From the NCBI GenBank assembly GCA_963780225.1, contig CAWAAX010000026.1:13403-77402 (forward strand): DNA of 64,000 nucleotides, in the 5' to 3' direction. Each line of letters starts with the position of its first letter. Position 1 is the stretch's first letter. A model generated the notes under the pieces. The model worked only from the letters and a program-made list of their open reading frames with translations, made no database searches and was not told where the DNA came from. Positions 5,369 through 50,906 of this stretch are shown here, piece after piece. The stretch is from an uncultured bacterium (lineage in GTDB: Bacteria > Edwardsbacteria > AC1 > EtOH8). A program made the position numbers and the translations under genes.

Positions 5369-5454
5369 GATTAAACCTCCTTTCTTACCGGAATTCCTCC
5401 GGTACTTAAAATTGTGGTTTGTTCTGTTAGCAAGCCAGATAATTTATGCCGATC

Positions 5455-5529: not shown

Positions 5530-5619
5530 TATTTTCACCTCCTTAAATTTAAAATATTAGAATCTTGTACTAATTGTGTATAAATATACAATATATTGTA
5601 TATTTGTCAAGAAAAAAAA

Positions 5620-5780: not shown

Positions 5781-6007
5781 TTTGATTTTTCCAAAGATTT
5801 TTTTCAAAAAGTCCCAAGATCTTCAAGGGACAAGGGTTTTCAGGGAGGAGCTTCTAAAATATATTGTACAACCCGCATAAATACTATGGTTTTCAAAATT
5901 AAGCAAAAGAATTAAAATAAAAAACTTAAACGGCAAACATCATCGGTGCAAAAAATAAAACAGCCAAGAACCTGACGGGTCGAAAAGGATCTCCTGATTT
6001 TAAAGCA

Positions 6008-6802: not shown

Positions 6803-6989
6803 GGGGGCTCCTTTTTTGCCACTAAGGCACAAAGGCACAAAGTGTAAATTATGTTGTTCGAAAGGAAATGTATTGTATGAGGCTATGGTTTCTTGTCACA
6901 AAAAATACTTTGAATTGAGCTGAAGGAATGCTAAGTTCCGCAGATTATTTCCCATTTCCCAGTTCCTATTTCCAATTTATTTATTTAGT

Positions 6990-7868: not shown

Positions 7869-8069
7869 TGTCTGAATTTTACCGCCTAAAGGCTCAGGTT
7901 GTCAACCAAAATATGATCTTGTTTTTTTGGTAAAACTCTTGACTTTTTATGCTCTTTGTGAAATAATTCACTTTCTGTGCTCCAAATATACCAATGGTCA
8001 TTATTTTTATTCTGACCGCGGTATTTAAGGGGCCATTCGTTCATTCTATCAAAGATACTATTTTATTTT

Positions 8070-9255: not shown

Positions 9256-9258
9256 CCT

Positions 9259-9866: not shown

Positions 9867-9887
9867 CAAAACCAAAAGTAAGAGCCT

Positions 9888-10724
9888 ATGAACCCCAATA
9901 TCTACCTACCATACATAGCCGAGATCACCGACATCAAGCAGGAGACCGGCGATACCCGGACCTACGATGTCAAAATAAAGAACAAGGACGAGGCCAAGCT
10001 GTTCGTCTCCCGGCCCGGCCAGTTCGTGGAGGCCTCGGTGTTCGGGGCCGGCGAGGCACCCTTCGGGCTGACCACTTCGCCCAGGGAGCCCGGGGTGATG
10101 ACCTTTACCGTGCGGGCTTGCGGCAAGGTGACCAACGCCCTAGCCGAAATGAAGAAGGGCGAAGAGATAGGCATCAAGGGTCCCCTGGGCAACAGCTTTT
10201 TGGACAAGATAGACTCCAAGGGCAAGGACATTCTGGTGATCGGGGGCGGCATCGGGCTTCCGCCGCTGCGCTCCATGATAGACCACATCTTCAACAACCG
10301 TTCGGACTACCGGGAGTTCACCATCCTCTACGGCGCCAGGACCCCGGCCGACCGGGTCTACAAATATCAGCTTACCGACTGGGAAAAGAAGACCGACCTC
10401 AAGCTGATCCAGACGGTGGACGTGGCCGACAAGGACTGGACCGGCAACGTGGGGGTGGTCACCACTTTGTTCCCCAAGCTGAAACTGGACATCCCCAACA
10501 CCGTGGTCTACACCTGCGGTCCGCCCATCATGATCAAGTTCGTGATAATCGAACTGCTCAAGCTGGGTCTGCCGGAGAAGCAGATCGTGTCCACCTTGGA
10601 GCGCTACATGAAGTGCGGGGTGGGGAAATGCGGGCACTGCTGCATCGGGAACAAGTACGTCTGCACCGACGGGCCGGTGTTCGATTATACCGAGATCAAG
10701 GGGCTGGCCGAAGAGGCGTTCTAA
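9888..10724 (+). CDS. FAD/NAD(P)-binding oxidoreductase with a C-terminal [2Fe-2S] (sulfhydrogenase gamma HydG / AsrB / PyrK-like)
   Basis: FNR-like fold (RPGQFVEASVFGAGEAPF, ILVIGGGIGLPPLRSM) and the C-terminal cluster motif CGVGKCGHCCIGNKYVC. Confidence 0.75.
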   Translation: MNPNIYLPYIAEITDIKQETGDTRTYDVKIKNKDEAKLFVSRPGQFVEASVFGAGEAPFGLTTSPREPGVMTFTVRACGKVTNALAEMKKGEEIGIKGPLGNSFLDKIDSKGKDILVIGGGIGLPPLRSMIDHIFNNRSDYREFTILYGARTPADRVYKYQLTDWEKKTDLKLIQTVDVADKDWTGNVGVVTTLFPKLKLDIPNTVVYTCGPPIMIKFVIIELLKLGLPEKQIVSTLERYMKCGVGKCGHCCIGNKYVCTDGPVFDYTEIKGLAEEAF

Positions 10725-10817
10725 CGATAGGGATTACGATAGGCCATACAATGGGGATTCGATAGCGATACAATTGCAGTCTCAATGTATAACCATCGTA
10801 TAGCAAAGGAAGCTATC

Positions 10818-11384
10818 GTGCTTGACCTGATAGAGTATCTCCGCTCCCTGAACCAAAACTCCCTGATCATCGGGGTGGGCAATCCCCTGAGGGGCGACGA
10901 CGGGTTCGGACCGGCATTGATAGCAGGGCTTAACGGACGGACCGGCATCAGGCTGATGGACGCCGAGGAGATCCCGGAAGCCTTTCTGGATCAGGCGGTC
11001 CAAATGGCCCCGGACAAACTGCTGATCGCCGACGCGGTGGCCCTGGGCGGCCTGCCGGGGGAAGCGGCCCTGATGCCGCCGGAATCGCTGGGGCAGAAGA
11101 TAGCCATCTCCACCCACAACCTGCCGCTGCTGATGTTCATCAAGTTCTTCCGGGAACAAAGCCCCAACACCGAGGTGATGCTGCTGGGGGTTCAGCCCAA
11201 GGGGATAGAGTTCGGGAAGGAGCTGAGCCCGGAGATAAGGAAGACCATAGACAGTTTGGTGGCAATCATACTGACAAGAAACCTAACAGAAGGGCAATTC
11301 TTAACGGTTCAAATGCATAATCATAATACCAAACAGTTTTTCTTTAAAAATTGTTATTCGAATGAGGGTTTGATATACAGTTAG
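10818..11384 (+). CDS. Hydrogenase maturation endopeptidase (HycI/HybD family)
   Basis: Signature LIIGVGNPLRGDDGFGPALI. I chose the GTG start at 10818, which has an AAAGGAAG RBS; the ORF track starts at 10785. Confidence 0.75.
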   Translation: MLDLIEYLRSLNQNSLIIGVGNPLRGDDGFGPALIAGLNGRTGIRLMDAEEIPEAFLDQAVQMAPDKLLIADAVALGGLPGEAALMPPESLGQKIAISTHNLPLLMFIKFFREQSPNTEVMLLGVQPKGIEFGKELSPEIRKTIDSLVAIILTRNLTEGQFLTVQMHNHNTKQFFFKNCYSNEGLIYS

Positions 11385-11427
11385 AATTTAAAATAATAAA
11401 ATAAACTCAATGATATAAGAAATATAT

Positions 11428-12882
11428 GTGTTACCAATTTTACTATTCACCATGCTGTTGCTGCCCTTTGCCGGGGCGCTGGTCTCGCAGTGGCTGCCGG
11501 AGAAGAGGCAGGACGGCTTTGCCGCAGTCATCGTCAGCCTGGTGACCGCGGCCTCGCTGTGGGCGGTATTCCTGGGGCTGGGCAAAAGCGTTCATTCCAA
11601 CGTCCTGCCTTGGTGGCCGTGGCTGCCTGAGGGCACTGAAGTGATGGGCCTCCATCTGGACCCGCTGTCCATAGTCCTGCTGCTGGTGACCACCATCATC
11701 GGACTGGCGGTGACCTTCTACGCCCGGGACTACCTTACCCCCCAGAACAAGTATCATCCCATTACAGGCGGCAAGAAACGCTTTTACCTGTGGCACCTGT
11801 TGTTCGTGGGCGCCATGGTGGGGGTGGCCCTGTCCCCCAACTTCCTCCAGATGTTCATCTTCTGGGAGCTGACCACCATCTGCTCCTGGGCCCTGATCTC
11901 CTACTACCACGACAGCGAGTCGCTGGAGGCCGGGTTCGAGGCGCTGATCAAGACCTTCTTCGGGGGCATCTTCTTCCTGATCGCCCTGATAGTGCTGTTC
12001 GTCAACACCGGCAGTTTCGGCTTCGACGCCATCAATCTTTTGACCCCCCAGCTGAAGACGGTGGTCTTCATCCTGTTCCTGATAGCGGCCTGGGCCAAGT
12101 CATCCCAGATAGTCTTCTTCGCCTGGCTGCCCAACGCCATGGCCGCGCCCACCCCGGTCTCCTGCTACCTGCACGCGGCCGCCATGGTCAAGGCCGGAGT
12201 TTATCTGATGGCCCGGGTGGCCATCTCCACCGTGGGCTTCTCCTACGGGCTGGGTCTTTTGGTGGCGGTGTTTGCGGTGTTCACCATGCTGGCCGCGCTG
12301 TTCCTGTTCTTCTTCCAGACCGATCTTAAAAAATTCCTGGCCTATTCCACCATCGCCCACCTGGGATACATCTTCCTGGGCATAGGGCTGGGGGTGATGG
12401 GCAGCTACTACGGCTACCAGGGGGCCATCCTTCACATCATCTGCCACGCCCCGGCCAAGGCCCTGCTGTTCATCTGCGTGGGGAACATAGCCTACGCCAC
12501 CGGCACCCGCAACATGGACGAACTGGGCGGCCTGACCAAGACCATGCCGCTGACCTCGATCGCCTTCATCGTGGGAACTTTGGGCGTCACCGGCATCGCC
12601 CCGCTTTCCTGCTACTGGTCAAAACTTTTCCTGATGGAGGGCGTGATAGAGATGGGCGGCAAGACGGCCGTCTTCCTGATCATCCCCTTCGTGGCCGAGA
12701 TCATCATCGCCTTCGCCTGGTATTTCTTCATCGCCCACAAGGTGTTCTTCGGCGAGGCCTCGCCCCGGGTGAACCAGGCCCTTAAACTGCCCATGAACAC
12801 CAAGGTCATCCTGATCGTGCTGATGGTGCTGACCGTGATCGCCCCGCTGGTGGGTTTGCCGCTGGTGAAGTTGATACGGTAA
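11428..12882 (+). CDS. Complex I / Mrp antiporter-like membrane subunit (NuoM/N, MrpD, HyfD-like)
   Basis: 484 aa and polytopic, with the conserved proton-pumping core (WLPNAMAAPTPVSCYLHAAAMVKAGVYL). Confidence 0.8.
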   Translation: MLPILLFTMLLLPFAGALVSQWLPEKRQDGFAAVIVSLVTAASLWAVFLGLGKSVHSNVLPWWPWLPEGTEVMGLHLDPLSIVLLLVTTIIGLAVTFYARDYLTPQNKYHPITGGKKRFYLWHLLFVGAMVGVALSPNFLQMFIFWELTTICSWALISYYHDSESLEAGFEALIKTFFGGIFFLIALIVLFVNTGSFGFDAINLLTPQLKTVVFILFLIAAWAKSSQIVFFAWLPNAMAAPTPVSCYLHAAAMVKAGVYLMARVAISTVGFSYGLGLLVAVFAVFTMLAALFLFFFQTDLKKFLAYSTIAHLGYIFLGIGLGVMGSYYGYQGAILHIICHAPAKALLFICVGNIAYATGTRNMDELGGLTKTMPLTSIAFIVGTLGVTGIAPLSCYWSKLFLMEGVIEMGGKTAVFLIIPFVAEIIIAFAWYFFIAHKVFFGEASPRVNQALKLPMNTKVILIVLMVLTVIAPLVGLPLVKLIR

Positions 12883-12961
12883 GCCCGACCCCTCCCTTGA
12901 TCCCTCCCCGTTGCGGAGAGGGATAAGTTAGTTCGGTAAGGTAAACAAAAGAGGAGAGAGT

Positions 12962-13981
12962 ATGCATCCTCGTCACTATGTTTTGGGCATGTTCGCGGTT
13001 TTGTTGGCTGTTTGTATGGCATGCCCGCTTAATGCACAAGTAAAACAGCAAGGGACAAAGCAAACTGTTACGGCCAAGCCGGAAACGGTTTACGTGCAGG
13101 CAATCCAGCCAGAAAATACGAAGCAATTGGATAGAACAATAAGTGTTCTTAATATAATTATAACTGCAATTGGTGTTTTAGGTACAATCGTTACGTTGGC
13201 CTTTATGGTTGCAATTGCTCTAGGTTTTTTTGAAATAAACAAGTGGAGGGAGATTAGAGTACAAGCGGAGCAGCATAAAAAAGATGTGCAACAATGCCTT
13301 GAAGATATAAAAAAATATCTAGCTGTTGCAAAACAAGACAAAGACGAAATTAAAAAGACAAAGGAAGAAGCCGACGCTCTAATTGTGGGAATAAAACAAC
13401 TTTCGTTAAAGGAAAAACCATCGAAAGAAGTCAAGGCAAAGCTTGATGAATATGGGAAAAAGATAGAAATGCTTGAAGCCTTGGGTAGCCCATTGACGCC
13501 GGAAAATTATTATAACAAGGGAATTGACTTTTACTACAAAAGCAAATATGAGGTAGCTCTGAGTGCCTTTGAGAAAGCCATAGAACTTAAACCTGTATTT
13601 GCTCAAGCTTGGTGCAACAAAGGTGTCGTACTCAGTGAACTTGGGAATAACGAAGAAGCACTCAAAGCCCATGAGAAGGCCATAGAACTAAATCCAAATT
13701 ATGCCAACGCCTGGGACAATAAGGGCATTGTACTAAGCAAGCTGAAACGATATGGAGATGCACTTAAAGCACATGAGAAAGCAATAGTGATAAAGCCAGA
13801 TTTTGTAAATGCCTGGTTTAATAAGGCTTGTGTTTATTCATTAATGGGCGATAAGCAAAATTCCCTTATAAGTTTAAGCAAAACAATAAAGTTGGATTCT
13901 ACACGCAAAGAAGACGCAAAAAGTGACGAAGATTTTAAGACCCTATGGACAGACCCTGATTTTATAAAACTTGTAAGTTAA
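12962..13981 (+). CDS. TPR-repeat protein with an N-terminal signal/TM and a coiled coil; a low-GC insertion inside the hydrogenase operon
   Basis: Four or five TPR units (AWCNKGVVLSELGNNEEALKAHEKAIELNP, etc.). About 40% GC. Confidence 0.75.
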   Translation: MHPRHYVLGMFAVLLAVCMACPLNAQVKQQGTKQTVTAKPETVYVQAIQPENTKQLDRTISVLNIIITAIGVLGTIVTLAFMVAIALGFFEINKWREIRVQAEQHKKDVQQCLEDIKKYLAVAKQDKDEIKKTKEEADALIVGIKQLSLKEKPSKEVKAKLDEYGKKIEMLEALGSPLTPENYYNKGIDFYYKSKYEVALSAFEKAIELKPVFAQAWCNKGVVLSELGNNEEALKAHEKAIELNPNYANAWDNKGIVLSKLKRYGDALKAHEKAIVIKPDFVNAWFNKACVYSLMGDKQNSLISLSKTIKLDSTRKEDAKSDEDFKTLWTDPDFIKLVS

Positions 13982-16397: not shown

Positions 16398-16891
16398 GTA
16401 TGGCCGTGACCGACAGGGTAGACCTGCTGGCGAACATTGACGGAGGGTATTTGCAGTGTGGGACTAAGCACCGGGTACGTTTCACCGCACAATTTCAGGC
16501 TCAGGCCTTGGGATCCGGTATAATTTTGGATCACGACAGGTGGATGTTTCCATACATTGCGCCTAATGTTGCCGAGGCGATTCTGAGATGAGGTACAGCA
16601 ACTAAGAATTATTCATTCATGTTTATTGCAAATAGGATTCGTACGGAGAACTGAGAAGCCACCTGGTATTAGCTGCGGATCGAGATACGCGGGGACTGAT
16701 ATCCGGCCGTGCACAATCATTTTACGCAAGCCGGATGAAATGGCTGTTAGGGATTTCTACGAATGGCGGTATAATTCATCATATATTGCAAGATACTTAT
16801 AATGAAGGGCAAGAGGTTCCAATAATGCTTTGCAGACAGTTAACCTTTCAACAATGGCAACATAAAGCAACATCTTAAACAAAGGGATACA

Positions 16892-18208
16892 ATGACCAAA
16901 CAGGAAATACTCTCTTTACTAAAGGCCAAGCTGGGCACCGGATTCATCGCCCACAGCGAGCCTATTCCCGACCAGCTGTGGGTGGAGGTCAAGCCCCAGG
17001 CCTCGGTCCAGGCCGTGGAGATACTGCACCGCACCACCAAGGCCCGCTATCTGGTGAGCGTGGGCTCGGACGAGCGGGAGCTAAAGAAGCGCTTCGGGGT
17101 CTACCACCTGTTCAGCTTTGACAAAGAACACTTCTTCGTCACCATCGACGTCTCGGCCGACCCCCACAAGCCGGTGCTGCCCTCCATCACCAACGTCATC
17201 GCCGGGGCCAACTGGTCGGAGCGGGAGATCCGCGATCTGTTGGGCGTGCAGTTCGAGGGCCATCCCGATCCCCGGAGATTAGTTCTGGCCGATGACTGGC
17301 CGAACGAGGTCTATCCGCTGCGCCGGGACTTCGACTACAGTTCCAAGCCGCCCTCCAACCCGGAGAACGCCTATCCCTTCAAGGACAACCCGCCCAACAC
17401 CACGGTGGTGGCCATGGGGCCGTATTTCCCGGTGTTCGAGGAAGCCACCTATTTCCGGCTGTACGTCGAGGGCGAAAAGGTGGTGGACGTGGACTACCGC
17501 GGATTTTACGCCCACCGGGGCATAGAAAAACTGGGCGACGCTTCGCTGACCTACAACCAGATACCCTTCATCGCCGAGCGGATCTGCGGTATCTGCGGCT
17601 TCGTCCACAACGTCTCCTTCTGCAAATTAGTGGAACACGCGGCCGGGATCAAGGTCCCGCGCCGGGCCGACTACATAAGAACCATCATGCTGGAGCTGGA
17701 GCGCATCCATTCCCACGCCCTGTGGCTGGGGGTGGCCGGGCACATCATCGGCTTTGACACCGTGCTGATGCAGACCTGGCGGATGCGGGAGCCCATCATG
17801 TGGCTGTGCGAAAAGCTGACCGGCAACCGCAAGACCTACGGCATGAACCTGATCGGCGGGGTGCGCCGGGACATCACCAAGGCCCAGGTGCCCGAGGTCC
17901 GCAAAAAGATCGACGCCATGGACAAGGAATGGCAGGCGGTGCTGGACGCCGTCAAGGACGACACCACATTAAGAATGAGATTAGAGAAGGTGGGGATCCT
18001 CAACCGCGAGCAGAGCCACGAGTGGGCGGCAGTGGGCCCGGTGGCCCGGGCGGCCGACATCGACATGGACTCCCGCAAGGACCATCCCTACTGCGCCTAC
18101 GACGCGGTGGATTTCAAGGTGATCACCGCCGACACCAACGACGTCTGGGGCCGGACCGTGGTCCGGATCCTGGAAACAATCGAATCGTTCAAGATCGTCC
18201 GCCAATGA
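16892..18208 (+). pseudogene. Truncated tandem duplicate of the 5' 1.3 kb of the hydrogenase large-subunit gene
   Basis: 16892-18205 is near-identical to 18205-19518, with a few synonymous or conservative differences. The junction ..GTCCGCCA|ATGACCAAACAGG creates a TGA, so the copy ends before the C-terminal Ni-binding motif. Confidence 0.7.
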
Positions 18209-19884
18209 CCAAACAGGAAATCCTCTCTTTACTAAAGGCCAAGCTGGGCACCGGATTCATCGCCCACACCGAGCCTATTCCCGACCAGCTGTGGGTGGAG
18301 GTCAAGCCCCAGGCCTCGGTCCAGGCCGTGGAGATACTGCACCGCACCACCAAGGCCCGCTACTTAGTGAGCGTGGGCTCGGACGAGCGGGAGCTAAAGA
18401 AGCGCTTCGGGGTCTACCACCTGTTCAGCTTTGACAAAGAACACTTCTTCGTCACCATCGACGTCTCGGCCGATCCCCACAAGCCGGTGCTGCCCTCCAT
18501 CACCAACGTCATCGCCGGGGCCAACTGGTCGGAGCGGGAGATCCGCGATCTGCTGGGCGTGCAGTTCGAGGGCCATCCCGATCCCCGGAGATTAGTTCTG
18601 GCCGATGACTGGCCGAACGAGGTCTATCCGCTGCGACGGGACTTTGACTACAGCTCCAAACCGCCCTCCAACCCGGAGAACGCCTATCCCTTCAAGGACA
18701 ACCCGCCCAACACCACGGTGGTGGCCATGGGGCCGTATTTCCCGGTCTTTGAAGAGGCCACTTACTTCCGGCTGTACGTCGAGGGCGAGAAGGTGGTGGA
18801 CGTGGACTACCGCGGATTTTACGCCCACCGGGGGATAGAAAAACTGGGCGACGCTTCGCTGACCTACAACCAGATACCCTTCATCGCCGAGCGGATCTGC
18901 GGCATCTGCGGCTTCGTCCACAACGTCTCCTTCTGCAAGCTGGTGGAGCACGCGGCCGGGATCAAGGTCCCGCGCCGGGCCGATTACATCCGGACCATCA
19001 TGCTGGAGCTGGAGCGCATCCATTCCCACGCCCTGTGGCTGGGGGTGGCCGGGCACATCATCGGCTTCGACACCGTGCTGATGCAGACCTGGCGGATGCG
19101 GGAGCCCATCATGTGGCTGTGCGAAAAACTGACCGGCAACCGCAAGACCTACGGCATGAACCTGATCGGCGGGGTGCGCCGGGATATCACCAAAGCCCAG
19201 GTGCCCGAGGTCCGCAAAAAGATCGACGCCATGGACAAGGAATGGCAGGCGGTGCTGGACGCCGTCAAGGATGATACCACATTAAGAATGAGGCTGGAGA
19301 AGGTGGGGATCCTCAACCGCGAGCAGAGCCACGAGTGGGCGGCGGTGGGCCCGGTGGCCCGGGCGGCCGACATCGACATGGACTCCCGCAAGGACCATCC
19401 CTACTGCGCCTACGACGCGGTGGACTTCAAGGTGATCACCGCCGACACCAACGATGTCTGGGGCCGGACCGTGGTCCGGATCCTGGAGACCATCGAATCG
19501 TTCAAGATCGTCCGCCAGTGTCTGGACGCTTTAATGGAACTGCCGGAGGGCGACATCATCACCGAGATCCGGGACGAGATCCCGGCCGGGCGGATAGCCA
19601 TCTCGGCTGTCGAAGCGCCCCGGGGCGAGGACGTCCACTTCCTGCTGACCGGCGGAGACAACCGGCCCTACCGCTGGCGGGTGCGGTGCCCAACATATCC
19701 CAACTTGCCCACCGTGCAGGTGATGGTCAAGGGCGAGCAGGTGGCCGACGTGCCGATCATCCTGGGCTCCATCGATCCCTGCTTCAGCTGCACCGAGCGG
19801 ATGGAGGTCTGCGACCTGTCAACAGGCAAGGTCAGGATCTACAGCCAGGAGGAACTGTTTAACTGGACCGCCAAGCGCAGTTAG
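18205..19884 (+). CDS. hyfG: [NiFe]-hydrogenase large subunit, group 4, with fused NuoC-NuoD domains (HyfG/HycE-like)
   Basis: 559 aa. The N-terminus is NuoC-like (WSEREIRDLLGVQFEGHPD). It carries the proximal Ni-binding motif RICGICGFVH and the distal motif DPCFSCTERMEV. Confidence 0.85.
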   Translation: MTKQEILSLLKAKLGTGFIAHTEPIPDQLWVEVKPQASVQAVEILHRTTKARYLVSVGSDERELKKRFGVYHLFSFDKEHFFVTIDVSADPHKPVLPSITNVIAGANWSEREIRDLLGVQFEGHPDPRRLVLADDWPNEVYPLRRDFDYSSKPPSNPENAYPFKDNPPNTTVVAMGPYFPVFEEATYFRLYVEGEKVVDVDYRGFYAHRGIEKLGDASLTYNQIPFIAERICGICGFVHNVSFCKLVEHAAGIKVPRRADYIRTIMLELERIHSHALWLGVAGHIIGFDTVLMQTWRMREPIMWLCEKLTGNRKTYGMNLIGGVRRDITKAQVPEVRKKIDAMDKEWQAVLDAVKDDTTLRMRLEKVGILNREQSHEWAAVGPVARAADIDMDSRKDHPYCAYDAVDFKVITADTNDVWGRTVVRILETIESFKIVRQCLDALMELPEGDIITEIRDEIPAGRIAISAVEAPRGEDVHFLLTGGDNRPYRWRVRCPTYPNLPTVQVMVKGEQVADVPIILGSIDPCFSCTERMEVCDLSTGKVRIYSQEELFNWTAKRS

Positions 19885-30493: not shown

Positions 30494-30712
30494 GAGATAG
30501 TTTGAAACTGACTTCCGGTAACGGACAATAATCATCCCAACCATCGTTCGATCATGGTGCGGGCAGCTGCAAAGGCAGGCCTGTTCGCACCGTTTCTATA
30601 CCCCAAAGGGAACCAGGTATTTTTCCTGGTTGACATGAGGGCTTATTTGTATTATCCTTATGGGTCGTAACGATAAGATGGTGTACCAAGGAAACATGGA
30701 TTTCACCCAGGT

Positions 30713-31115
30713 ATGTTCTTTACTTCGTCAGTAAAGCACAGCACCCATCTCAGCACGGCGTTTCTTTTTTGTGCCGCCCCTTTCGTTTGCATGGCAAGGA
30801 GGCATACTCAGGGCAGGCTCCCAGAAAAAGAACTTAAACATGTCCTGAGATGACATCGTGCTTAGCTAATCGAAGGAAAGCTCGTCGCAAAATACTATCC
30901 GGGCCACGCTTACGCTAAAGCTTCAGCGGGCCCGCGTTGCGCTTCTCGCTGACGGCGGGCTTGTCTGAACTCGGGCTTTTGCCAAGCCCTCAAACAGGCG
31001 CAGACAAGCTTTTAACCGCCGTCAACTGCGATGCTCACTGATAGTATTTAACGCGACAACCAGGGTTGGTCCCGGTTGATCAACGAATTCCCCGAGATAA
31101 TTGGATAATCATTTG
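30713..31115. repeat. Copy B of the ~370-bp inverted repeat (reverse complement of 1120-1491), with a ~30-nt insertion
   Basis: See copy A. It ends 41 bp upstream of gatE. Confidence 0.85.
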
Positions 31116-31155: not shown

Positions 31156-33120
31156 ATGAGTTCAAAGTTAAATCCGCAGGATAACTACCGGGCCACCCTG
31201 GCCTCCACCGGATATGTTCCGATCAAAGAGGCCACCCAGGCCACCTACGACGCCATCGGCTTCATGTCGGGGCTGGAGGTGCACCAGCAGCTGCTGACCG
31301 ACCAGAAGCTGTTCTGCCGCTGCCCGGCCGGACGTTTTCAGAAGTCAGACGACTACGACGCCGAGATCGTCCGCCACATGCGGCCCACCCTTTCGGAGCT
31401 GGGGGAATACGACGGCACCGCTTTGATGGAGTTCCGGACCCGGAAGAACATCGTCTACCGCATCAAGAGCCCCACCGCCTGCACCTACGAGGTGGACGAC
31501 ACCCCGCCCTTCCCCCTGAACCGCCAGGCGCTGGAGATCGCCATCGAGATAGCCCTGCTCTCCAAGCTGAACCTGGTGGGCGAGGTCCACATCGCCCGCA
31601 AGCAGTACCTGGACGGCAGCATCCCCACCGGGTTCCAGCGCACCGCCATCATCGGGGTGGAGGGCTCGATCCCGCTGAAGCACAAGAAGGTCCGCCTGAT
31701 CCAGCTGTCGCTGGAGGAGGACTCCTGCCGCGAGGTCTCGGACATCGGCCACCTCCGGATCTACCGCACCGACCGGCTGGGCATGCCGCTGATAGAGACC
31801 GTGACCTATCCCGACATGAAAAACCCGGACGAGGTGAAGGAGGCCTGCGACTACATCCGCTTTTTGAACCGCAGCACCGGCAAGGTCCGCACCGGCATCG
31901 GGGCGGCCCGCCAGGACGTCAACGTCTCCTGCACCGGCGGCACCCGGGTGGAACTGAAGGGGGTCTCCCACACCAAGTGGATACCGCTTTTGACCCACAA
32001 TGAATGCTTCCGCCAGTGGGCTTTGCTGAAGATCCGCGATCTGCTCAAGAATAAGGTGAAACAGCCCAAGGACTGGAAGATGGTTTCCGAGCCGCTGAAA
32101 TCCCTATCCGGGAAGCTGGAGAGCCCGCGGGCCAGGGAACTTTTCAGCAACGGGAACAAGGTGATGGCGGTGAACCTGCCGGGATTTCATGGCATCCTGT
32201 CGCATTTTACCCAGCCGGGTAAATGCTTCGCCGACGATTTCTCGGAACGGCTGAAGGTGATCGCCTGCATCGAGAGACCGAACATGACCAGCTCCGAGGC
32301 ACTGGAGCCGGTGCTTTCGGACAAAGACTGGGACCAGGTCCGGACCCTGCTCCGCTCCTCTGATGGCGACGCCCAGATAGTCTTCTGGGGGCCGGAGGCG
32401 GACATCAAGACCGGACTGGAGACCATCGACGAGCGATGCCGGCTGGCCTTTGCTGGGGTGCCCAACGAGACCAGAAAAACATTTGAGGACGGGACCACCA
32501 TCTTCGAACGGGTGCTGCCCGGGGCCGACCGGATGTACCCCGACACCGATTCCAAGCCCATCCCGCTGGAGGACTCCCGGATCGAGGAGATCAGGAAGAT
32601 GGTGCCCAGCGAGGTGGCCGACCGCTACCGGCAGTTGAAGGACTGGGGCGTGCCGGAGGATTGCTATACCTACATCTTTGTCCGGAACCTGTATCCGGTG
32701 ATCGAGAAGATAGTCAAAGAACTGGGACAGGATCCCAAGACCGTAGGGGGTGTTTTCGGGCATCTTTTGAAGAACATCGAGGGACACTACCAGAGGTCGC
32801 CGGATTTCTCGTACGACCGCATCTATGACCTGTACAAATACGTAAAGGATAGCAAGCTGGATACCGAGATAGTCAAAACCATGCTGCCGGTGGTGTACCA
32901 GTATCCCAAGATGGACTTTGATTCGGTGCTGGTGAACCTTGAATTCAAGCGGTTCTCCAAGGATGAAGTAGTTTCCAAGATCCCGTTCCTGAAAGATAAA
33001 TACAAGAGCATCAAGACATCTAAACTTCCTGTGGCCGAGAAACACTGGGTCATGGGACAACTGAGAAAAATGGCAGTAGGGAATATTCCTCTGAAAGAAT
33101 TGATGGGAAGCATTGGTTAG
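31156..33120 (+). CDS. gatE: Glutamyl-tRNA(Gln) amidotransferase subunit E (archaeal-type GatE)
   Basis: The N-terminus has ..GLEVHQQLLTDQKLFCRCPA.. and the GatB/E core, and the protein is 654 aa. The final ~50 codons are low GC, and an alternative C-terminus remnant lies at 34258-34413. Confidence 0.8.
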   Translation: MSSKLNPQDNYRATLASTGYVPIKEATQATYDAIGFMSGLEVHQQLLTDQKLFCRCPAGRFQKSDDYDAEIVRHMRPTLSELGEYDGTALMEFRTRKNIVYRIKSPTACTYEVDDTPPFPLNRQALEIAIEIALLSKLNLVGEVHIARKQYLDGSIPTGFQRTAIIGVEGSIPLKHKKVRLIQLSLEEDSCREVSDIGHLRIYRTDRLGMPLIETVTYPDMKNPDEVKEACDYIRFLNRSTGKVRTGIGAARQDVNVSCTGGTRVELKGVSHTKWIPLLTHNECFRQWALLKIRDLLKNKVKQPKDWKMVSEPLKSLSGKLESPRARELFSNGNKVMAVNLPGFHGILSHFTQPGKCFADDFSERLKVIACIERPNMTSSEALEPVLSDKDWDQVRTLLRSSDGDAQIVFWGPEADIKTGLETIDERCRLAFAGVPNETRKTFEDGTTIFERVLPGADRMYPDTDSKPIPLEDSRIEEIRKMVPSEVADRYRQLKDWGVPEDCYTYIFVRNLYPVIEKIVKELGQDPKTVGGVFGHLLKNIEGHYQRSPDFSYDRIYDLYKYVKDSKLDTEIVKTMLPVVYQYPKMDFDSVLVNLEFKRFSKDEVVSKIPFLKDKYKSIKTSKLPVAEKHWVMGQLRKMAVGNIPLKELMGSIG

Positions 33121-33152
33121 GGGTTAGCCGCCATTAAGATTGATAGATGAAC

Positions 33153-34220
33153 ATGAAAGATCAGCAAATCAAGGACAGGGGTTTGATTAAAACGCGCCAA
33201 CCCGAGAAAAACCTTTATGCCAAGATTCGAGCGATCATTGAGAAGGCGCGCGGCAATGTGGCGAGGGCTGTCAACACGGAAATGCTGGCGGCGTATTGAC
33301 AGGTTGGGAGAGAAATTGTGGAAGAGGAACAGCGCGGGAAGGTTCGCGCCGGTTACGGTGAAAAGGCATTAAGACGGATATCGGAAAAGCTGATGGCTGA
33401 TTTTGGAAAAGGCTTTGATGAGTCAAACCTGCGCAACATAAGGCAATTCTATCTGGCCTATCCAAAACGTGACGCACTGCGTCACGAATTAAGCTGGACA
33501 CATTACCGCATTCTAATGCGGGTGGAGAACCCCGGGGCGAGGTCTTTCTATGAAATTGAATGCGTTAAAAATAGCTGGTCTGCCCGTGAACTGGAACGTC
33601 AAAAAGGTTCTCTTTTGTTTGATCGGCTGGCTTTGAGCAAAGACAAAAAGGGCCTTATAAAACTGGCGCAAAAGGGGCAGGAGATCCAGAGCTACGCCGA
33701 CATGATAAAAGACCCCTATGTCTTGGAATTCACCGGGCTTTCCCCGCAGTCGAAGCTTTATGAAAGCTCCCTGGAACAAGCCCTGATAGATAACCTTTCC
33801 AGATTTTTGCTTGAATTGGGCAAGGGATTCACCGTTGTCGCCCGGCAAAAGAGGATTTCGCTGGATGGGGACCACTTCCATATCGATCTTGTTTTCTACA
33901 ACACCATTCTGAAATGCTATGTGATCATTGACTTAAAGATCGGCAAGCTGGCGCATCAGGATATCGGACAGATGCAGATGTATGTTAATTATTATGACAG
34001 GGAAGTCAGGCAAAACGACGACAATCCCACGGTGGGGCTTATTTTATGCGAGGATAAAAAAGACGCGGTTGTTCGTTACACTCTTTCCAAAGACAATAGG
34101 CAAATATTCGCATCGCGGTATAAATTGTATTTACCCAGCGAGAAGGAATTGCTGTGCGAATTAAGAAAGGACCGCCGCTTGCTGGAAGAATCCGGGCGGA
34201 CAGACAAACGGGTAAAATAA
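33153..34220 (+). pseudogene. DUF1016/YhcG-like PD-(D/E)XK nuclease-domain protein with an in-frame TGA at codon 49
   Basis: MKDQQIKDRG...NTEMLAAY then TGA (33297-33299) then QVGREIVEEEQRGK... The stop falls where family members have a conserved Trp (AAYWQVG). An alternative GTG start is at 33318. About 45% GC. Confidence 0.6.
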
Positions 34221-34257
34221 CAAACGGAATTGGATGGAAGCAATTCTCTAAGGGAAT

Positions 34258-34413
34258 ATACTTTACCAGATGCCGGGCCTGAATGAGAAGCACATGGGCA
34301 TCAGAACATCAAACCTACCGGAAGCCGAGAAACACTGGGTCATAGGGCAATTGATGAAGCCGGCGTTGGGGAACATTAAACTGGCAGATCTTTGGAACCT
34401 GATCAAAGCCTAA
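34258..34413 (+). other. Displaced duplicate of the gatE 3' end (last ~50 codons)
   Basis: It translates to ILYQMPGLNEKHMGIRTSNLPEAEKHWVIGQLMKPALGNIKLADLWNLIKA*, which aligns with the GatE C-terminus KIPFLKDKYKSIKTSKLPVAEKHWVMGQLRKMAVGNIPLKELMGSIG*. Confidence 0.65.
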
Positions 34414-34453
34414 TACGGTCAACCTGAAAACAGCAATTGAGAACCAGACGATA

Positions 34454-35839
34454 ATGAACGACGATTTCTTCCAAGGCTACAAAGGCGGGGGGCTGGAGGT
34501 CCTCAAGAAATTCAACGTCCGGGTGTGGGGACAGGCCGAGGTGCTTACCAGCCGCGGGCATTTCAAGGGCACGGTACTGCCCCGGTCGGAGAGCGACGAC
34601 GACCAGCACATAGTGCTGAAGATAGCCACCGGCTACAATGTGGGCATAGACATCGCCACCATCACCGGGATGACCGAGACCGGCTACAAGAAGGCCAACT
34701 ACAAGATCCCGGAGAAGGAGTTCCCCATCACCCCCGGCCTGCCCAAGGTAAAACTGCTGGGGACCGGGGGCACCATCGCCAGCCGGCTTGATTACCGCAC
34801 CGGCGCGGTGATCCCGGCCTTCACTCCGGGCGAGCTCTATGGCGCGGTGCCGGAGCTGGCCGACATCTGCAATTTGTCCACCGAAAAACTGTTCGCCGTC
34901 TTTAGTGAAAACATGGGGCCGGAGCAGTACAAGAAGCTGGCGGTGGCCATCGGCAAGGAGATCGAGAACGGGATCGACGGCATCGTGATCGGCCACGGCA
35001 CCGACACCCTGCATTACACCGCGGCCGCCCTGACCTACATGGTCCAGAACCCGCCGGTGCCCATCGTTTTGGTAGGCTCCCAGCGCTCCTCCGACCGCCC
35101 CAGCTCCGACGCCGCCCTGAACCTGATGCACGCCACTACCGCCGCCGGGCACGGGGACATCGCCGAGGTGATGGTCTGCATGTTCGGGCCCACCTCCGAC
35201 GAATACGGCTTTCTGCACCGGGGCACCCGGGTCCGCAAGATGCACTCCTCCTACCGTTCCACCTTCCGCACCATCGGGGACACCCCGCTGGCCACAGTTA
35301 CCCGCCAGGGGGTCAAGCCCATCAAGCAGGATTACCATCCCCGGCGCAAGGACCGCCAGGTCAAGATCATGCCCTACTTTGAGGAGAAGATAGGAATGAT
35401 CTACTATTACACCAACATGCAACCGGACATGATAGACTCCATGGTGGACAGCGGCTACAAGGGGATCATCATCATCGGCACCGGATTGGGGCACGTCAAC
35501 AAGCCGCTGTACCCGGCCATCGAACGGGCGGTGGCCAAGGGGGTCCACATCTTCATGACAGTGCAGACACTGTGGGGCTACGTCCACATGTTCGTCTATG
35601 ACACCGGGCGCGATCTGATGGCCAAGGGAGTGGTGCCGCTGGAGAACATGCTTCCCGAAGCCGCCTACATCAAGCTGGGCTGGGTGCTGGGACAGACCCA
35701 GGACCGGGAGGAAGTAAACCGGATGATGCTGGCGCCGGTCAGCGACGAGATTACCCCCCGGGAGCCCTATAACGGGTATCTGATCTATCAGGGCGGGGTA
35801 CCCGAGGTGGAGGAGTTCATCAGGAAGGTGCATAAGTAA
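34454..35839 (+). CDS. gatD: Glutamyl-tRNA(Gln) amidotransferase subunit D (archaeal-type GatD; asparaginase-like domain)
   Basis: Asparaginase-fold signature KLLGTGGTIASR, IVIGHGTDTLHYTAAAL, and 461 aa. Confidence 0.8.
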   Translation: MNDDFFQGYKGGGLEVLKKFNVRVWGQAEVLTSRGHFKGTVLPRSESDDDQHIVLKIATGYNVGIDIATITGMTETGYKKANYKIPEKEFPITPGLPKVKLLGTGGTIASRLDYRTGAVIPAFTPGELYGAVPELADICNLSTEKLFAVFSENMGPEQYKKLAVAIGKEIENGIDGIVIGHGTDTLHYTAAALTYMVQNPPVPIVLVGSQRSSDRPSSDAALNLMHATTAAGHGDIAEVMVCMFGPTSDEYGFLHRGTRVRKMHSSYRSTFRTIGDTPLATVTRQGVKPIKQDYHPRRKDRQVKIMPYFEEKIGMIYYYTNMQPDMIDSMVDSGYKGIIIIGTGLGHVNKPLYPAIERAVAKGVHIFMTVQTLWGYVHMFVYDTGRDLMAKGVVPLENMLPEAAYIKLGWVLGQTQDREEVNRMMLAPVSDEITPREPYNGYLIYQGGVPEVEEFIRKVHK

Positions 35840-35847: not shown

Positions 35848-35878
35848 TAAAGCCCCGTTAACGCGGGGCTTTTTTCTT
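35848..35878 (+). terminator. Rho-independent terminator after gatD
   Basis: AAAGCCCCGttaaCGCGGGGCTTTTTTC. Confidence 0.6.
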
Positions 35879-36021
35879 TTCCCAAAACCGCCCTAAAATA
35901 TCTTTAATAAATTGCTTGCTTTAAACGGCTTATTGGTATAAAATATACTGTTATACTCCATAGCTATGCCTGCCCATAAAATTCCATAAGTAGCCATTAC
36001 TGGCGCAAGGAGCACGATATA

Positions 36022-38667
36022 ATGAAACTGACAAGATTCCAATGGTACCGGGCCGGGTTGATATTTTTGCTGGCGGTGCTGATCGCCGCCGGGCTGGTAC
36101 TGTTTAAGACCACCCGGCAGCTTGCGCTGACTGTGGATAACGGATCATCCAAACTGGAGATCCTGTCGGCCATAGGCCGGGTGCGCCTGCTGGCGCGGGA
36201 GATGGAAATGACCCGGCCGGCGCCCGGTACGCCGCAGGACGATCCGGCGGCCGTCCGCTACGGGAACACGGTCGAAAATGCCAGGGCGGAGATAACCGCA
36301 TTGGCCAGGCAGACGGCCGACTGGCCGGTGCAGTTGGAACGGGTCGCCTTGCTTAATACCCTGGTCCAGGATCAGGTCTATAAGATGACCCCAGTACTGC
36401 CTAAACCGGCGGCAGGCAAGGGAAAGGGTCTCGCCGGGATAAAGCCGGAAACGGTCCCCGGGCCGGATTTCAGCGGCATCAAGACCATTCTCAACCGCAT
36501 GGAGGAGGATGAGGGAAAGGTCGTTGCTTCATGGCGCAATAACCTGTGGAACTCTCTCCGGATGCTGGCTGTTGCGGTAGTAGTGATAGTGATCGCCGCC
36601 GGCATCGTCGCCGTGGTGGCCTATCTTCTGATGTTGATCGAATTCTCCCGGCGCCGGTCGACCGAGCGGCTGTTGCGGGAGAGCCAGCTTCGCTTCGGCC
36701 TGCTGATTGACGAAGCCATGGACTTCTCCCTGGTTGTGCTTGACGCCTCCGGCCGGATGGTCGACTGGAACCTGGGGGCGAAGCGGATGTTTGGATACAG
36801 CGCCGGCGAGGTCAGGCGCAAGCACTTCTCCAAACTCTTTCCTCAGGAGCAGGTTCAGCAGGGCCTCCCGGAAAGGCATCTGAAAGCGGCGATTAACAGC
36901 GGACAGGACCGCGACGAGGGGATTCTGATCCGCCACGATTCCGGATCTTTTCCGGTCCGGAAAGCGGTCTATGCTCTGCGGGATGACGCCGGCAGGCTGA
37001 GCGGCTTTGCCGCGGTGATCCAGGATATAACCGAAGAACAACATTCCCGGGAAGAAGTGGCCAAGCTCGGCCTGTCGCTGGAGAACTCGACCGATCTGGT
37101 AGCCATCACCACGGCCGATGGGATCATAGAACAAGTCAACCGGGCGCTGCTGGCGGCGACCGGATACGCCCTGGAGGAACTGTTGGGAAAGCCGCTGGAC
37201 TCTCTGCGGCCGGCCGGCTCCAAACCCAAGCCCCAAGATACGGAAGGACAGGCCTCGTTCATCCGCAAGAAGAACGGAGATCAGCTGCAGGTGTCGCAGA
37301 CCACGGCCCCGGTCATTGACAAAGCCGGGCGTACCACCCATCTGGTAGTCACGTCAAAGGATGTCACCGCCCAGAAACAGCTGGAGGTTAAATTATCTTT
37401 CCTGCATCAGCACGATCCGCTGACCGGCCTGTTCAACCGGAACTATTTCCAGGCCCAGGCCAAAGAGGAAATAGACCGGAGGACCGGCGGGAGCGCAATG
37501 CTGATCATCTGTATCGACCGCTTCCGGCAGATCAATGACGTTTTCGGCATCAATGCCGGAAACCTGGTGCTGATGCAGCTGGCCGAATGCCTGCGAAAAG
37601 AAGTGGGCCACCGGGGCGTGATAGGGCGCATGGGCAGCGACGAGTTCGGCATCGTCCTCCGGGACGTGCACGATCCAGAAGACGTGACCGCCATAGTTAT
37701 GGCCGTCAAGAAGCACGCCGCCCGGCGGGTGGCAGTCAACGGCCGCAAGCTGTTTCTGACCTTGTCAGCCGGCGCCTCGCTTCATCCCGACGACGGCATC
37801 GATTCCGAGACACTGCTGAAGAACGCCGATGTGGCTTTGGTCCATGCCAAATCCAGCGGATTGAACCAGTTCCGCATGTACTCGAACGAGATCAATAACC
37901 GGATGTCGGCCCTGATGTCCATGGAACAACAGCTGTTCGGCGCCCTTCAGAATAACGAATATACCGTCAGTTATCAGCCTTATTTCGAGCTGAACCACCG
38001 GCGGATCGCCGGGGCCGAGGCCCTGATCCGATGGGTCAACAGCGAACTGGGCACGGTCTCCCCCGACCGGTTCATCAAGGCCCTGGAGACCACCGGCCTG
38101 ATCATAGACGTCGGCAACTGGGTGCTTAAGGCGGCCTGCCTTCAGGCCAAGAAGATGGAAAGCACCAAGCACAGATTCCCGCTGTCGGTAAACCTGTCGC
38201 CGTCGCAGTTCCGTTACGACGGTTTGGTGGACACGGTCAAAGAAATAATAGGCGAAACCAACATCGACCCCCGGCTGCTGACCATGGAGGTTACCGAGAG
38301 CGTCTTTGTAGAGGACCTGGGTTTCGCCCAGTCGGTGCTGAAACAGCTGAAAAAAGTCGGAGTGGCCATATCCATAGACGACTTCGGCACCGGCTATTCA
38401 TCGCTGAGCTACCTCAAGAAGTTGCCGGTGGACGTTGTAAAAATAGACCAAACCTTTGTGCACGACGTTACCAGCGATCCCGACACCGCCTCCATCGTCA
38501 CTTCGATCACCAACATGGCCAAGAGCCTGGGCCTGAAGACCATCGCCGAAGGGGTGGAAACCGAGGAGCAGTGCAAGGTGCTGCGCCTGCTGCGATGCGA
38601 CATGGGGCAGGGGTATTTCTTCAGCCCGGCCATGAATGCGGTGGACTTTGAGAGGTCGTTGGTCTAA
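36022..38667 (+). CDS. Membrane sensor protein with PAS domains, a degenerate GGDEF (GSDEF) and an EAL domain (predicted c-di-GMP phosphodiesterase)
   Basis: N-terminal TM helices and two PAS domains. The GGDEF site reads RMGSDEFGIVL. The EAL motif AEALIRW and the downstream EAL-domain residues are intact. Confidence 0.85.
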   Translation: MKLTRFQWYRAGLIFLLAVLIAAGLVLFKTTRQLALTVDNGSSKLEILSAIGRVRLLAREMEMTRPAPGTPQDDPAAVRYGNTVENARAEITALARQTADWPVQLERVALLNTLVQDQVYKMTPVLPKPAAGKGKGLAGIKPETVPGPDFSGIKTILNRMEEDEGKVVASWRNNLWNSLRMLAVAVVVIVIAAGIVAVVAYLLMLIEFSRRRSTERLLRESQLRFGLLIDEAMDFSLVVLDASGRMVDWNLGAKRMFGYSAGEVRRKHFSKLFPQEQVQQGLPERHLKAAINSGQDRDEGILIRHDSGSFPVRKAVYALRDDAGRLSGFAAVIQDITEEQHSREEVAKLGLSLENSTDLVAITTADGIIEQVNRALLAATGYALEELLGKPLDSLRPAGSKPKPQDTEGQASFIRKKNGDQLQVSQTTAPVIDKAGRTTHLVVTSKDVTAQKQLEVKLSFLHQHDPLTGLFNRNYFQAQAKEEIDRRTGGSAMLIICIDRFRQINDVFGINAGNLVLMQLAECLRKEVGHRGVIGRMGSDEFGIVLRDVHDPEDVTAIVMAVKKHAARRVAVNGRKLFLTLSAGASLHPDDGIDSETLLKNADVALVHAKSSGLNQFRMYSNEINNRMSALMSMEQQLFGALQNNEYTVSYQPYFELNHRRIAGAEALIRWVNSELGTVSPDRFIKALETTGLIIDVGNWVLKAACLQAKKMESTKHRFPLSVNLSPSQFRYDGLVDTVKEIIGETNIDPRLLTMEVTESVFVEDLGFAQSVLKQLKKVGVAISIDDFGTGYSSLSYLKKLPVDVVKIDQTFVHDVTSDPDTASIVTSITNMAKSLGLKTIAEGVETEEQCKVLRLLRCDMGQGYFFSPAMNAVDFERSLV

Positions 38668-38739: not shown

Positions 38740-38982
38740 GAGGAGTTCATAGAGAAGTTTCATCCGCCTACGCAGGACACCACGAGCTATGCCCGTGGGG
38801 CTCCATAAATGTACAAAGCCTCGTTAGCACGGGGCTTTTTTTATTTCCCTGAAGTCGTTTTAAAATATCTCCAATAAAGTGCTTGCTTAAAACAACTTAT
38901 TGATATAAAATATACTGTCAAACTCCATTACTACGTCTGCATAAAAAATCTTATAAAAATACCCCAAACGAGGAGGTATCTT
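38740..38982. repeat. Duplicate of the gatD 3' end, terminator and 5' leader module (compare 35790-36020)
   Basis: ..GGAGGAGTTCATAGAGAAGTTTCAT.., the terminator AGCCTCGTTAGCACGGGGCTTTTTTT and the AAAATATCTCCAATAAAGTGCTTGCTTAAAACAACTTATTGATATAAAATATACTGT segment parallel 35790-36020. Confidence 0.6.
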
Positions 38983-50273: not shown

Positions 50274-50906
50274 TTAGATCTCCCGCGCCGGGGTCAGCAC
50301 CTGCTCAAAGTAAAACTTGATGGCGCTCATGGCCTGGTTCCTATAACTCCCGGACACTCCCTTCTCGCCGCTCAGGTATTCCAGGTAAGCCTTGATCTCC
50401 GCCGGGCCCAGCTCCTGGGGCGGCCGGTGCCCGGTATGGGCCAGCAACAAATTAAAATGAGACACATAGACCCGGACGGTGGCCTCGCTGTAATTGCGCT
50501 GGCGGAGTTGTTCCAGGTACTCCGGCGGCAGGGCCGGGCTTTGGGAAGATGAACGCCTTCTTTTCCGCCCGTCCGTCCGGGGCCCGTCAGCGCTCCGTTT
50601 GGCCCGCCGGCTGGGCGGGGGCGCGCCGGTGACCTCGGCCAGGCCGTCCAGCTTGGCTTGGAGGTAGGCCAGCCAGTTCTCCCGCCAGGGCATCAGCCCC
50701 TCATGGGATCCGGCCCGCCAGTGCAAGCTGGGCAGTCTCTTTTTGATCTCGGCCACTGGGATCTCATCGCCGATATCCAGCTTGATCCATTTCCGGCCCA
50801 GATGGGTGATGGGTTCACAGTAGATGGTCATCCGGCCCGCCGCTGGGTCTGGTTGGGTTCCGGGAATGTCGTGAGTTCCGTCATTCATTATCTTCTTCGT
50901 ATCCAC
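50274..50906 (-). CDS. Orphan protein whose C-terminus is a phage-integrase N-terminal SAM-like (core-binding) domain; no catalytic domain
   Basis: ..YSEATVRVYVSHFNLLLAHTG..LGPAEIKAYLEYL..VSGSYRNQAMSAIKFYFEQVL is typical of XerD/integrase CB domains. There is an Arg/Ser-rich linker. It lies 5 bp downstream of the fusion gene. Confidence 0.5.
   Translation of the reverse strand: MDTKKIMNDGTHDIPGTQPDPAAGRMTIYCEPITHLGRKWIKLDIGDEIPVAEIKKRLPSLHWRAGSHEGLMPWRENWLAYLQAKLDGLAEVTGAPPPSRRAKRSADGPRTDGRKRRRSSSQSPALPPEYLEQLRQRNYSEATVRVYVSHFNLLLAHTGHRPPQELGPAEIKAYLEYLSGEKGVSGSYRNQAMSAIKFYFEQVLTPAREI

Follow-up and report, generated by a model that had tools for sequence, protein, structure and literature searches.

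The window analysed here, a stretch of 64,000 nucleotides from contig CAWAAX010000026.1 of an uncultured bacterium, carries on its + strand two genes from its list of open reading frames, gatE (31156-33120, 654 aa) and gatD (34454-35839, 461 aa). The former encodes a tRNA-dependent kinase/amidotransferase subunit and the latter an asparaginase-type glutaminase subunit. We consider it likely that the locus encodes a working tRNA-dependent amidotransferase of the heterodimer type, GatDE, in a bacterium labelled TA06/UBP2, and that it belongs to an old, bacteria-only branch of the family rather than being a recent import from archaea. Reviews published from 2008 to 2022 describe GatDE as exclusively archaeal (PMC2330236, PMC2811023, PMC8007984, PMC8762117, PMC9499178). 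An earlier note on this DNA also held the pair to be an archaeal hallmark, which matches the published view (PMC2330236, PMC8762117, PMC9499178, PMC8007984). This restriction does not hold for the window, nor for at least 86 related loci besides it, all of which have a bacterial gene context.

Identification of GatE and GatD

The Pfam domain GatB_N matches residues 38-476 of the window GatE (E = 5e-45); as the profile has 277 positions, a match of this length indicates the presence of a long insertion. The protein exceeds the NCBIfam equivalog cutoffs of TIGR00134 (402.7 against 319.55) and, as a borderline case, of PRK04028 (456.8 against 456). It fails all six GatB equivalog models, with scores of 49-114 against cutoffs of 315-680, the highest score being 113.8 for a cutoff of 338. 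The closest solved structures are those of Methanothermobacter thermautotrophicus (2d6f_C, 8e-88) and Pyrococcus abyssi (1zq1_C, 5e-83). In HMMER alignments with 2D6F, H43, E187, and E214 of the window GatE align with H15, E157, and E184 of the M. thermautotrophicus protein, which are the Mg2+-binding residues of the kinase site and any one of which, when mutated, leaves the archaeal enzyme dead (PMC2330236). These residues are invariant across an alignment of 72 bacterial sequences.

The AlphaFold2 (AF2) model of the window GatE (predicted local distance difference test score, pLDDT, 84; predicted template modelling score, pTM, 0.82) first matches 1zq1_C and 2d6f_C/D, with E-values of about 1e-40 and template modelling (TM) scores, relative to the target, of 0.77-0.78. 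Chains of GatB rank behind them, with TM scores of 0.55-0.70. The insertion resembling aspartyl-tRNA synthetase (AspRS) is modelled as an alpha/beta domain at residues ~300-455, and 512-542 columns are aligned with the GatE structures. Weak matches to AspRS structures rank below those to GatE and GatB, and relatives of the window GatE show matches to the Pfam domain GAD.

GatD comprises the Pfam domains GatD_N (E = 3e-11), Asparaginase, and Asparaginase_C. It passes the GatD equivalogs by a wide margin (TIGR02153, 496.9 against 324; PRK04183, 498.4 against 310) and fails the asparaginase models, and its closest solved structures are 1zq1_A (4e-118) and 2d6f_A (6e-113). The residues T107, T183, D184, and K262, numbered from the alignment, are equivalent to T101, T177, D178, and K254 of the M. 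thermautotrophicus subunit, in which they correspond to the Thr nucleophile and to the Thr-Asp-Lys residues (PMC2330236). All four are conserved in 60 of the 60 bacterial copies. Type I L-asparaginases share the GatD core fold and the Thr/Thr-Asp-Lys catalytic residues; in contrast to them, the window GatD has a GatD_N domain, meets the GatD equivalogs, and is encoded together with gatE. An extra C-terminal tail of ~18 residues (IYQGGVPEVEEFIRKVHK; residues ~443-461, window 35780-35839) is common to bacterial GatD. Among six archaeal GatD compared, a similar tail is present in the Heimdallarchaeota copy only (L084 4392-5783, - strand).

The equivalog models passed, together with the GatB and asparaginase models failed, bear out the assignment of the two subunits as true GatE and GatD, which had been made in the earlier note. 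The ratio of nonsynonymous to synonymous substitution rates (dN/dS), calculated against two relatives, is 0.17-0.19 for gatE and 0.13 for gatD. Both genes are under purifying selection.

The window pair is similar to archaeal GatDE (2D6F, 1ZQ1) in its two subunits, with all GatD Pfam domains and a GatE core with a long insertion, and also in the catalytic residues of both subunits, the short basic loop of the GatE type, and the predicted fold. It differs in its bacterial host, in its limited identity to the archaeal proteins (~30-38% for GatE and ~45-49% for GatD), in a shifted loop, in a GatE tail with V-G-N-I-P-L in place of R-G-K-x-D-G, and in the additional C-terminal tail of GatD. In bacteria, GatCAB does the same job as GatDE. 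GatE and GatB (3IP4, 3AL0) are paralogues which share the chemistry of the cradle domain and the same His/Glu/Glu site. Nevertheless, the window GatE has an AspRS-like insertion of ~150 residues and lacks both the 3-10-turn insert and the second loop insert of GatB, and its partner is an asparaginase-type GatD, whereas GatCAB uses an amidase-type GatA together with GatC.

Bacterial context of the locus

The genes around the operon are bacterial. They include lepA followed by the signal peptidase I gene, and genes for an ECF-type sigma factor, ScpA, an AcrB fragment, MscS, and an M23 peptidase. Further proteins encoded in the window are a PAS-GGDEF-EAL protein, a GAF-HD-GYP protein, a CHASE2-cyclase, and a membrane hydrogenase/Mrp-type cluster. 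The nearest GatE proteins are labelled candidate division TA06, and the closest genome locus (L001, from bacterium UBP2_UBA5202, an independent assembly) is syntenic with the window, and on either side of the operon the two are 86-94% identical at the nucleotide level. These markers and this synteny support the description of the genome as bacterial-looking in the earlier note, and binning does not place the contig in an archaeon.

As carriers of the pair are nearly all metagenome-assembled genomes (MAGs), an archaeal contig mis-binned with bacteria, or a chimeric assembly, has to be considered. The presence of bacterial marker genes on both sides of the operon, on the same contig, and the identical gene order in L001 contradict such an artefact, to which we attach next to no probability. 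In addition, single-contig chromosomes (4.1, 4.9, and 6.0 Mb) are found among the carriers, and the archaeal homologues are found in plainly archaeal contexts, next to PolD, fibrillarin, and Nop5.

Phylogeny and distribution

The relationships between GatE and GatD sequences were assessed with rough neighbour-joining trees on corrected p-distances with 200 bootstraps, rather than by maximum likelihood. GatE sequences of clade I are 42-100% identical to the window GatE, and all the named members are bacterial (TA06, Edwardsbacteria, Bacteroidota, Calditrichia, KSB1, Latescibacteria, Krumholzibacteria, Aminicenantes, Desulfaltia/Deltaproteobacteria, and CSSED10-310). Those of clade II are 31-38% identical to the window GatE, and all the named members are archaeal (Heimdall-, Thor-, and Parvarchaeota, and Thermoprotei); both crystallised GatE enzymes (2D6F, 1ZQ1) fall in this clade. 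The gene contexts confirm these labels, with SecA, DnaA, LolA, sigma-70, RodA, and PBP2 in the flanks of clade I and PolD, fibrillarin/Nop5, and archaeal ribosomal genes in those of clade II.

In the GatE tree (623 columns), clade I is separated from all other sequences in 200 of 200 bootstraps, and clade I together with nine Asgard-like representatives is separated from the other archaea in 170 of 200. The GatD tree, comprising 19 sequences, shows bacterial monophyly in 200 of 200 bootstraps and the grouping of bacteria and two Asgard copies, apart from four other archaea, in 199 of 200. Identities of the window GatD are 65-69% with its counterparts in other bacterial phyla and 39-49% with those in archaea. 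The genes are not placed within the GatB or asparaginase clades, in line with the identity proposed in the earlier note. When the GatE tree was rooted with three hand-copied GatB fragments (339 columns), bacterial monophyly was recovered in 124 of 200 bootstraps, archaeal monophyly in 13, and the grouping of bacteria with Asgard-like sequences in 28. The bacterial GatDE clade may represent an ancient bacterial lineage, or it may stem from one exchange, long ago, with an Asgard-like archaeon. Judging from these comparisons, the window genes lie in a large and old GatDE branch that is restricted to bacteria and comprises Bacteroidales, other phyla of the FCB group, Aminicenantes, and Desulfobacterota, and Asgard-type enzymes are the nearest archaeal kin of this branch.

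Two points speak for a horizontal transfer of recent date, from an archaeon to the window lineage: the family is known elsewhere from archaea (PMC2330236), and Asgard archaea carry the nearest non-bacterial relatives of the window genes. However, the best archaeal identity is ~38% for GatE and 49% for GatD, compared with 42-69% for bacteria of other phyla, which contradicts a recent import. The bacterial clade also stands apart from archaea in all 200 bootstraps of each subunit's tree, and synteny is conserved within Bacteroidales; both observations argue against this transfer, which we regard as very improbable.

The distribution of the genes was established by scanning one genome per species in 185,579 species, which gave at least 584 confirmed relatives in bacterial genomes, mostly from Bacteroidales. 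The best 80 of these are 62-94% identical to the window GatE; almost all carry the label of Bacteroidales or of another Bacteroidota group, UBP2, Ignavibacteriaceae, and a small number of further labels also occur, and two complete chromosomes are included. Complete or nearly complete carriers comprise the Bacteroidales chromosomes OY782882.1 and OY787449.1, the 6.0-Mb ERZ25042269 ctg13255c, and CALMGM010000005.1. Among these best 80 loci, gatD lies directly after gatE in ~63, and clustering of the flanks revealed cell-envelope synteny blocks that are typical of vertical inheritance within Bacteroidales. The same clustering, examined for a conserved functional partner, linked no translation-related gene to the 80 loci. 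A search of 1.84 billion cluster representatives showed that the relatives form a continuum, from 59% down to 30% identity, and the gatE-gatD pair is retained across more than 10 named bacterial phyla. The earlier note had proposed horizontal acquisition or an unusual lineage. The part of this proposal that stands is a true GatDE in a bacterial genome; a special event in this lineage is not supported, given the large bacterial clade, its at least 584 matches in species-representative genomes, and its spread over more than 10 phyla.

The start and stop of gatD and gatE overlap by 4-8 nt in three loci from three phyla (L081, L082, and L089). A glutamine synthetase gene is found directly upstream of gatE-gatD in L089, a Deltaproteobacteria MAG (8584-13326), and directly upstream of gatD in L087, a DPANN archaeon (3066-7869). 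As a side observation, this linkage is a recurring tie of the amide-donor supply to the amidotransferase. In six bacterial loci (L003, L020, L022, L023, L061, and L083), the 10 kb downstream of gatE contain no gatD; in such cases the pair is split, or gatD may have been lost.

Compared with the GatDE of other bacteria (Calditrichia, KSB1, Latescibacteria, Krumholzibacteria, Aminicenantes, and Desulfobacterota MAGs), the window pair belongs to the same clade (200 of 200 bootstraps) and agrees with them in the gatE-gatD order and in the catalytic residues, with identities of 42-46% for GatE and 65-69% for GatD. In contrast, these other proteins keep the ancestral tail, R-G-R/K-x-x-G, and show matches to GatB_Yqey, neither of which is found in the subclade of the window.

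Probable function and tRNA recognition

The most likely function of the window GatDE is the known one, the formation of Gln-tRNAGln from Glu-tRNAGln. By analogy with the archaeal enzyme, a glutamyl-tRNA synthetase (GluRS) of the non-discriminating type would make Glu-tRNAGln, which GatE would bind. GatD, as an asparaginase-type amidase, would free ammonia from glutamine or asparagine. GatE would phosphorylate the side chain of the glutamate with ATP and Mg2+ and would then amidate the phosphorylated glutamate, which would yield Gln-tRNAGln. The gatE-gatD overlaps and the glutamine synthetase gene upstream of the pair in L089 provide supporting context for this function. No gatB-like gene was found in the window or in ~1.6 Mb of flanks of related loci, and no aminoacyl-tRNA synthetase or other gat gene among the window proteins scanned. 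The window contains no tRNA gene, and 60 related loci contain no tRNA-Gln gene.

Several observations weigh against this reading, of which the first concern the recognition of the tRNA. Bacterial tRNAGln normally has a U1-A72 pair, and the same is expected for the tRNA of the window host. Archaeal GatDE relies on the A1-U72 pair of archaeal tRNAGln (PMC2330236), so that recognition in the window host must differ from that of the studied enzyme. In GatE, a short basic loop replaces the 3-10 turn with which bacterial GatB reads U1-A72, and the tail has its own motif (GXXAXGX) instead of the Lys-rich one found in GatB (PMC2811023). The loop of the window GatE has the length found in archaeal GatE, with no GatB-specific insert of the DMEKG type. 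Nevertheless, the loop by the first base pair differs systematically from that of archaeal GatE, with K-V-R-T-G-I-G-A-A in the window and K-V-K-R-G-L-G-T-I in archaea. The bacterial clade exhibits R instead of K at position 245, A instead of T at position 250, and A/G/T instead of I at position 251; position 246 carries T rather than R in the subclade of the window and in about half of the remaining clade I.

The tail is also modified. The motif is R/K-G-K/R-x-D-G in archaea, and most of clade I exhibits a similar R-G-R/K-x-x-G. In the subclade of the window, which comprises TA06/UBP2, Edwardsbacteria, Bacteroidales, and Ignavibacteriaceae, all nine of the nine TA06/Bacteroidales members sampled have [LVI]-G-N-x-x-L instead, V-G-N-I-P-L in the window. 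The Pfam domain GatB_Yqey has no match in the window GatE, in agreement with the replaced motif and with the missing match throughout this subclade. AF2 predicts a helical GatE tail of the same length as a YqeY-like tail. Taken at the level of the sequence, the changes in the loop and in the tail are those that would be expected if the enzyme were now reading a bacterial tRNA.

The other points on the opposing side concern the gene pair and its host. One of the two NCBIfam cutoffs for GatE, that of PRK04028, is barely reached. The operon is interrupted by an insertion, through which gatE and gatD now lie 1.33 kb apart and the original final ~10 codons of gatE have been exchanged for others. 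Moreover, we infer both the need for GatDE in this host and its substrate. According to Table S1 of a 2014 survey (PMC4206432), eight cultured Bacteroidales genera taken from it all have glnS and asnS and lack gatCAB, and Cytophagia-type Bacteroidota have gatCAB and lack glnS. As these cultured Bacteroidales have glutaminyl-tRNA synthetase (GlnRS) without GatCAB, GatDE could be redundant in some hosts. The uncultured carriers may therefore use GatDE alongside GlnRS or in its place.

The altered loop and tail could also reflect a shifted substrate range, in which the enzyme would take Asp-tRNAAsn as a substrate, either alongside Glu-tRNAGln or in its place, or would use a different aminoacyl-tRNA, and would serve as a general amidotransferase in lineages devoid of GatCAB. 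Bacterial tRNAGln and tRNAAsn both exhibit U1-A72 (PMC2330236 and, for the entries in its Table S1, PMC4206432), so an enzyme retuned to this pair could accept both tRNAs. The residues of the loop by the first base pair are unlike those of archaeal GatE, and the tail motif replaced in the subclade of the window is said to help distinguish Glu-tRNAGln from Asp-tRNAAsn (PMC2811023). In contrast, the AspRS-like insertion domain, which is thought to clash with AspRS in the transamidosome (PMC2330236), is kept, and the cultured Bacteroidales of the 2014 table already have asparaginyl-tRNA synthetase (AsnRS). The linkage with glutamine synthetase in L089 and L087 fits either substrate and does not discriminate between them. 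On balance, a shifted substrate range is unlikely.

In hosts that use GlnRS, the pair might instead be a redundant or non-translational enzyme, such as a regulated glutaminase/asparaginase or a back-up pathway. The co-occurrence of GlnRS and AsnRS without GatCAB in the cultured Bacteroidales of the same table, the six loci with gatE and no gatD within 10 kb, and the insertions tolerated in the gatE-gatD spacer of several genomes would all be in keeping with this possibility. However, gatE and gatD are under purifying selection, the pair is kept across more than 10 phyla, and the invariant kinase-site residues of GatE are sensible only with an aminoacyl-tRNA substrate. In addition, archaeal GatD is an inactive glutaminase in the absence of Glu-tRNAGln (PMC2330236). 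We thus hold a redundant enzyme to be improbable and a working GatDE that forms Gln-tRNAGln to be the better explanation of the locus.

A broader proposal can be put forward only tentatively, and we find it possible but rather doubtful: that a deep, Asgard-related bacterial GatDE clade is the sole route to Gln-tRNAGln in many uncultured Bacteroidales and other FCB-group bacteria lacking both GlnRS and GatCAB, with the loop and the tail retuned from A1-U72 to U1-A72. If this were true, the retuned clade would constitute a natural experiment on the co-evolution of amidotransferase and tRNA, and would add fresh evidence on the question of whether GatDE is older than the divergence of archaea and bacteria.

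Relation to published work

Full-text literature searches found no description of bacterial GatDE. As the proteins are already annotated as GatE and GatD in public databases, no novelty attaches to the genes as such. Features of the clade that seem to have escaped description are its size, its separation from the archaeal enzymes, its affinity with Asgard enzymes, and its altered tRNA-reading elements. The premise that GatDE is restricted to archaea, found in reviews and textbooks, underlies several arguments, namely on why archaea never gained GlnRS, on how GatDE and archaeal tRNAGln co-evolved, and on whether both amidotransferases existed in the last universal common ancestor (PMC2330236, PMC9499178). 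A widespread bacterial GatDE clade under selection changes the premise of these arguments and predicts an altered tRNA recognition. It also raises the question of the route to Gln-tRNAGln in the Bacteroidales that are abundant in sediments and digesters, and whose cultured relatives use GlnRS.

Structure of the operon and insertion between gatE and gatD

The two genes are not adjacent in the window, a point missed in the earlier note; they lie 1,333 bases apart, compared with 55 nt in L001. The insert is bracketed by a 130-nt direct repeat, of which copy A (32969-33098, + strand, repeat family D3) lies in the working 3' region of gatE and copy B at 34259-34388, with 72% identity between the copies. 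Positions 11784-11928 of L001 match both copies. Between them lies an inserted YhcG/DUF1016 PDDEXK nuclease gene (33147-34220, + strand, 357 codons), with matches to the Pfam domains YhcG_C (1e-58) and DUF1016_N (7e-31), which is absent from L001, a relative with 94% identity. Its frame is broken by a single in-frame TGA at 33297-33299, with the translation ...MLAAY*QVGREIVEEEQ, so that the gene could be a pseudogene or contain a sequencing error. Copy B and the old stop codon form a decayed remnant of the original 3' end of gatE (34259-34412, + strand), which reads ...GIRTSNLPEAEKHWVIGQLMKPALGNIKLADLWNLIKA*.

In a three-way alignment, the working gatE tracks L001 up to ~33088, and its last ~10 codons (~33089-33120) diverge. 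The remnant retains an ending similar to that of L001, ...LWNLIKA*, which is closer to the native end than that of the working gatE, and continues into the native spacer and gatD. This alignment indicates that an insertion of ~1.2 kb, in the region 33089-34412, occurred at the extreme 3' terminus of gatE: the final ~10 codons of the working gene are derived from the inserted DNA, and the original terminus persists as the remnant.

The native gatE-gatD spacer (34413-34453, + strand), which contains the ribosome-binding region of gatD, is nearly identical to that of L001. No terminator was predicted on the + strand between gatE and gatD. A terminator-like hairpin with a T-run (35849-35872, + strand), comprising a 10-bp stem with 6 G-C pairs followed by TTTCTTTT, closes the gatE-gatD unit. 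Enlarged gatE-gatD spacers in other genomes contain unrelated inserts, i.e. M28 peptidase genes, small membrane proteins, and simple repeats, and yhcG is found in none of them; the spacer is a recurrent insertion site. The M28 peptidase gene, which has a secretion-type C-terminal domain, is located between gatE and gatD in two Bacteroidales (L032 12002-13249 and L047 11986-13224).

Upstream of gatE, a non-coding stretch (30712-31069, no strand assigned) is an inverted copy of positions 1166-1492 of the window. The two inverted repeats, I1 and I2, span 193 and 136 nt and are 96% and 94% complementary, respectively, and the 136-nt element is also present upstream of gatE in L001. A sigma-70-like site is found upstream of gatE at 30630-30658. 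An Rfam scan of the whole window matched no family, hence no known leader RNA upstream of gatE. The other arm, at 1166-1492, is ~29 kb from the arm on the gatE side, and an ABC-transporter gene has this arm upstream of it. The hydrogenase/Mrp-type cluster as a whole lies between the arms, which are ~330-360 nt long and could mediate its inversion.

Other features of the window

The PAS-GGDEF-EAL gene (36022-38667) is bracketed by a direct repeat of ~125 nt (35865-35989 and 38832-38956, 76% identical). It is absent from L001, in which a single copy of the bracketing sequence matches both repeats. It thus represents a second gene gain, beside the yhcG insertion, in which the insert lies between duplicated local sequences. 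Within the membrane hydrogenase/Mrp-type cluster, two tandem genes similar to NuoC/NuoD (hydrogenase large-subunit-like, 16892-19884) are 98% identical over their first 300 nt (16890-17189 and 18203-18502), pointing to a tandem duplication in the recent past. An open reading frame of 210 aa (50274-50906, - strand) has, of the phage-type integrase domains, the N-terminal SAM-like one alone and may be a truncated integrase; its neighbours are a CoA-transferase/HMGL fusion gene and an aconitase-family gene. Finally, a 148-nt direct repeat (61414-61561 and 62298-62445, 80% identical, 884 nt apart) is located near the signal peptidase gene.

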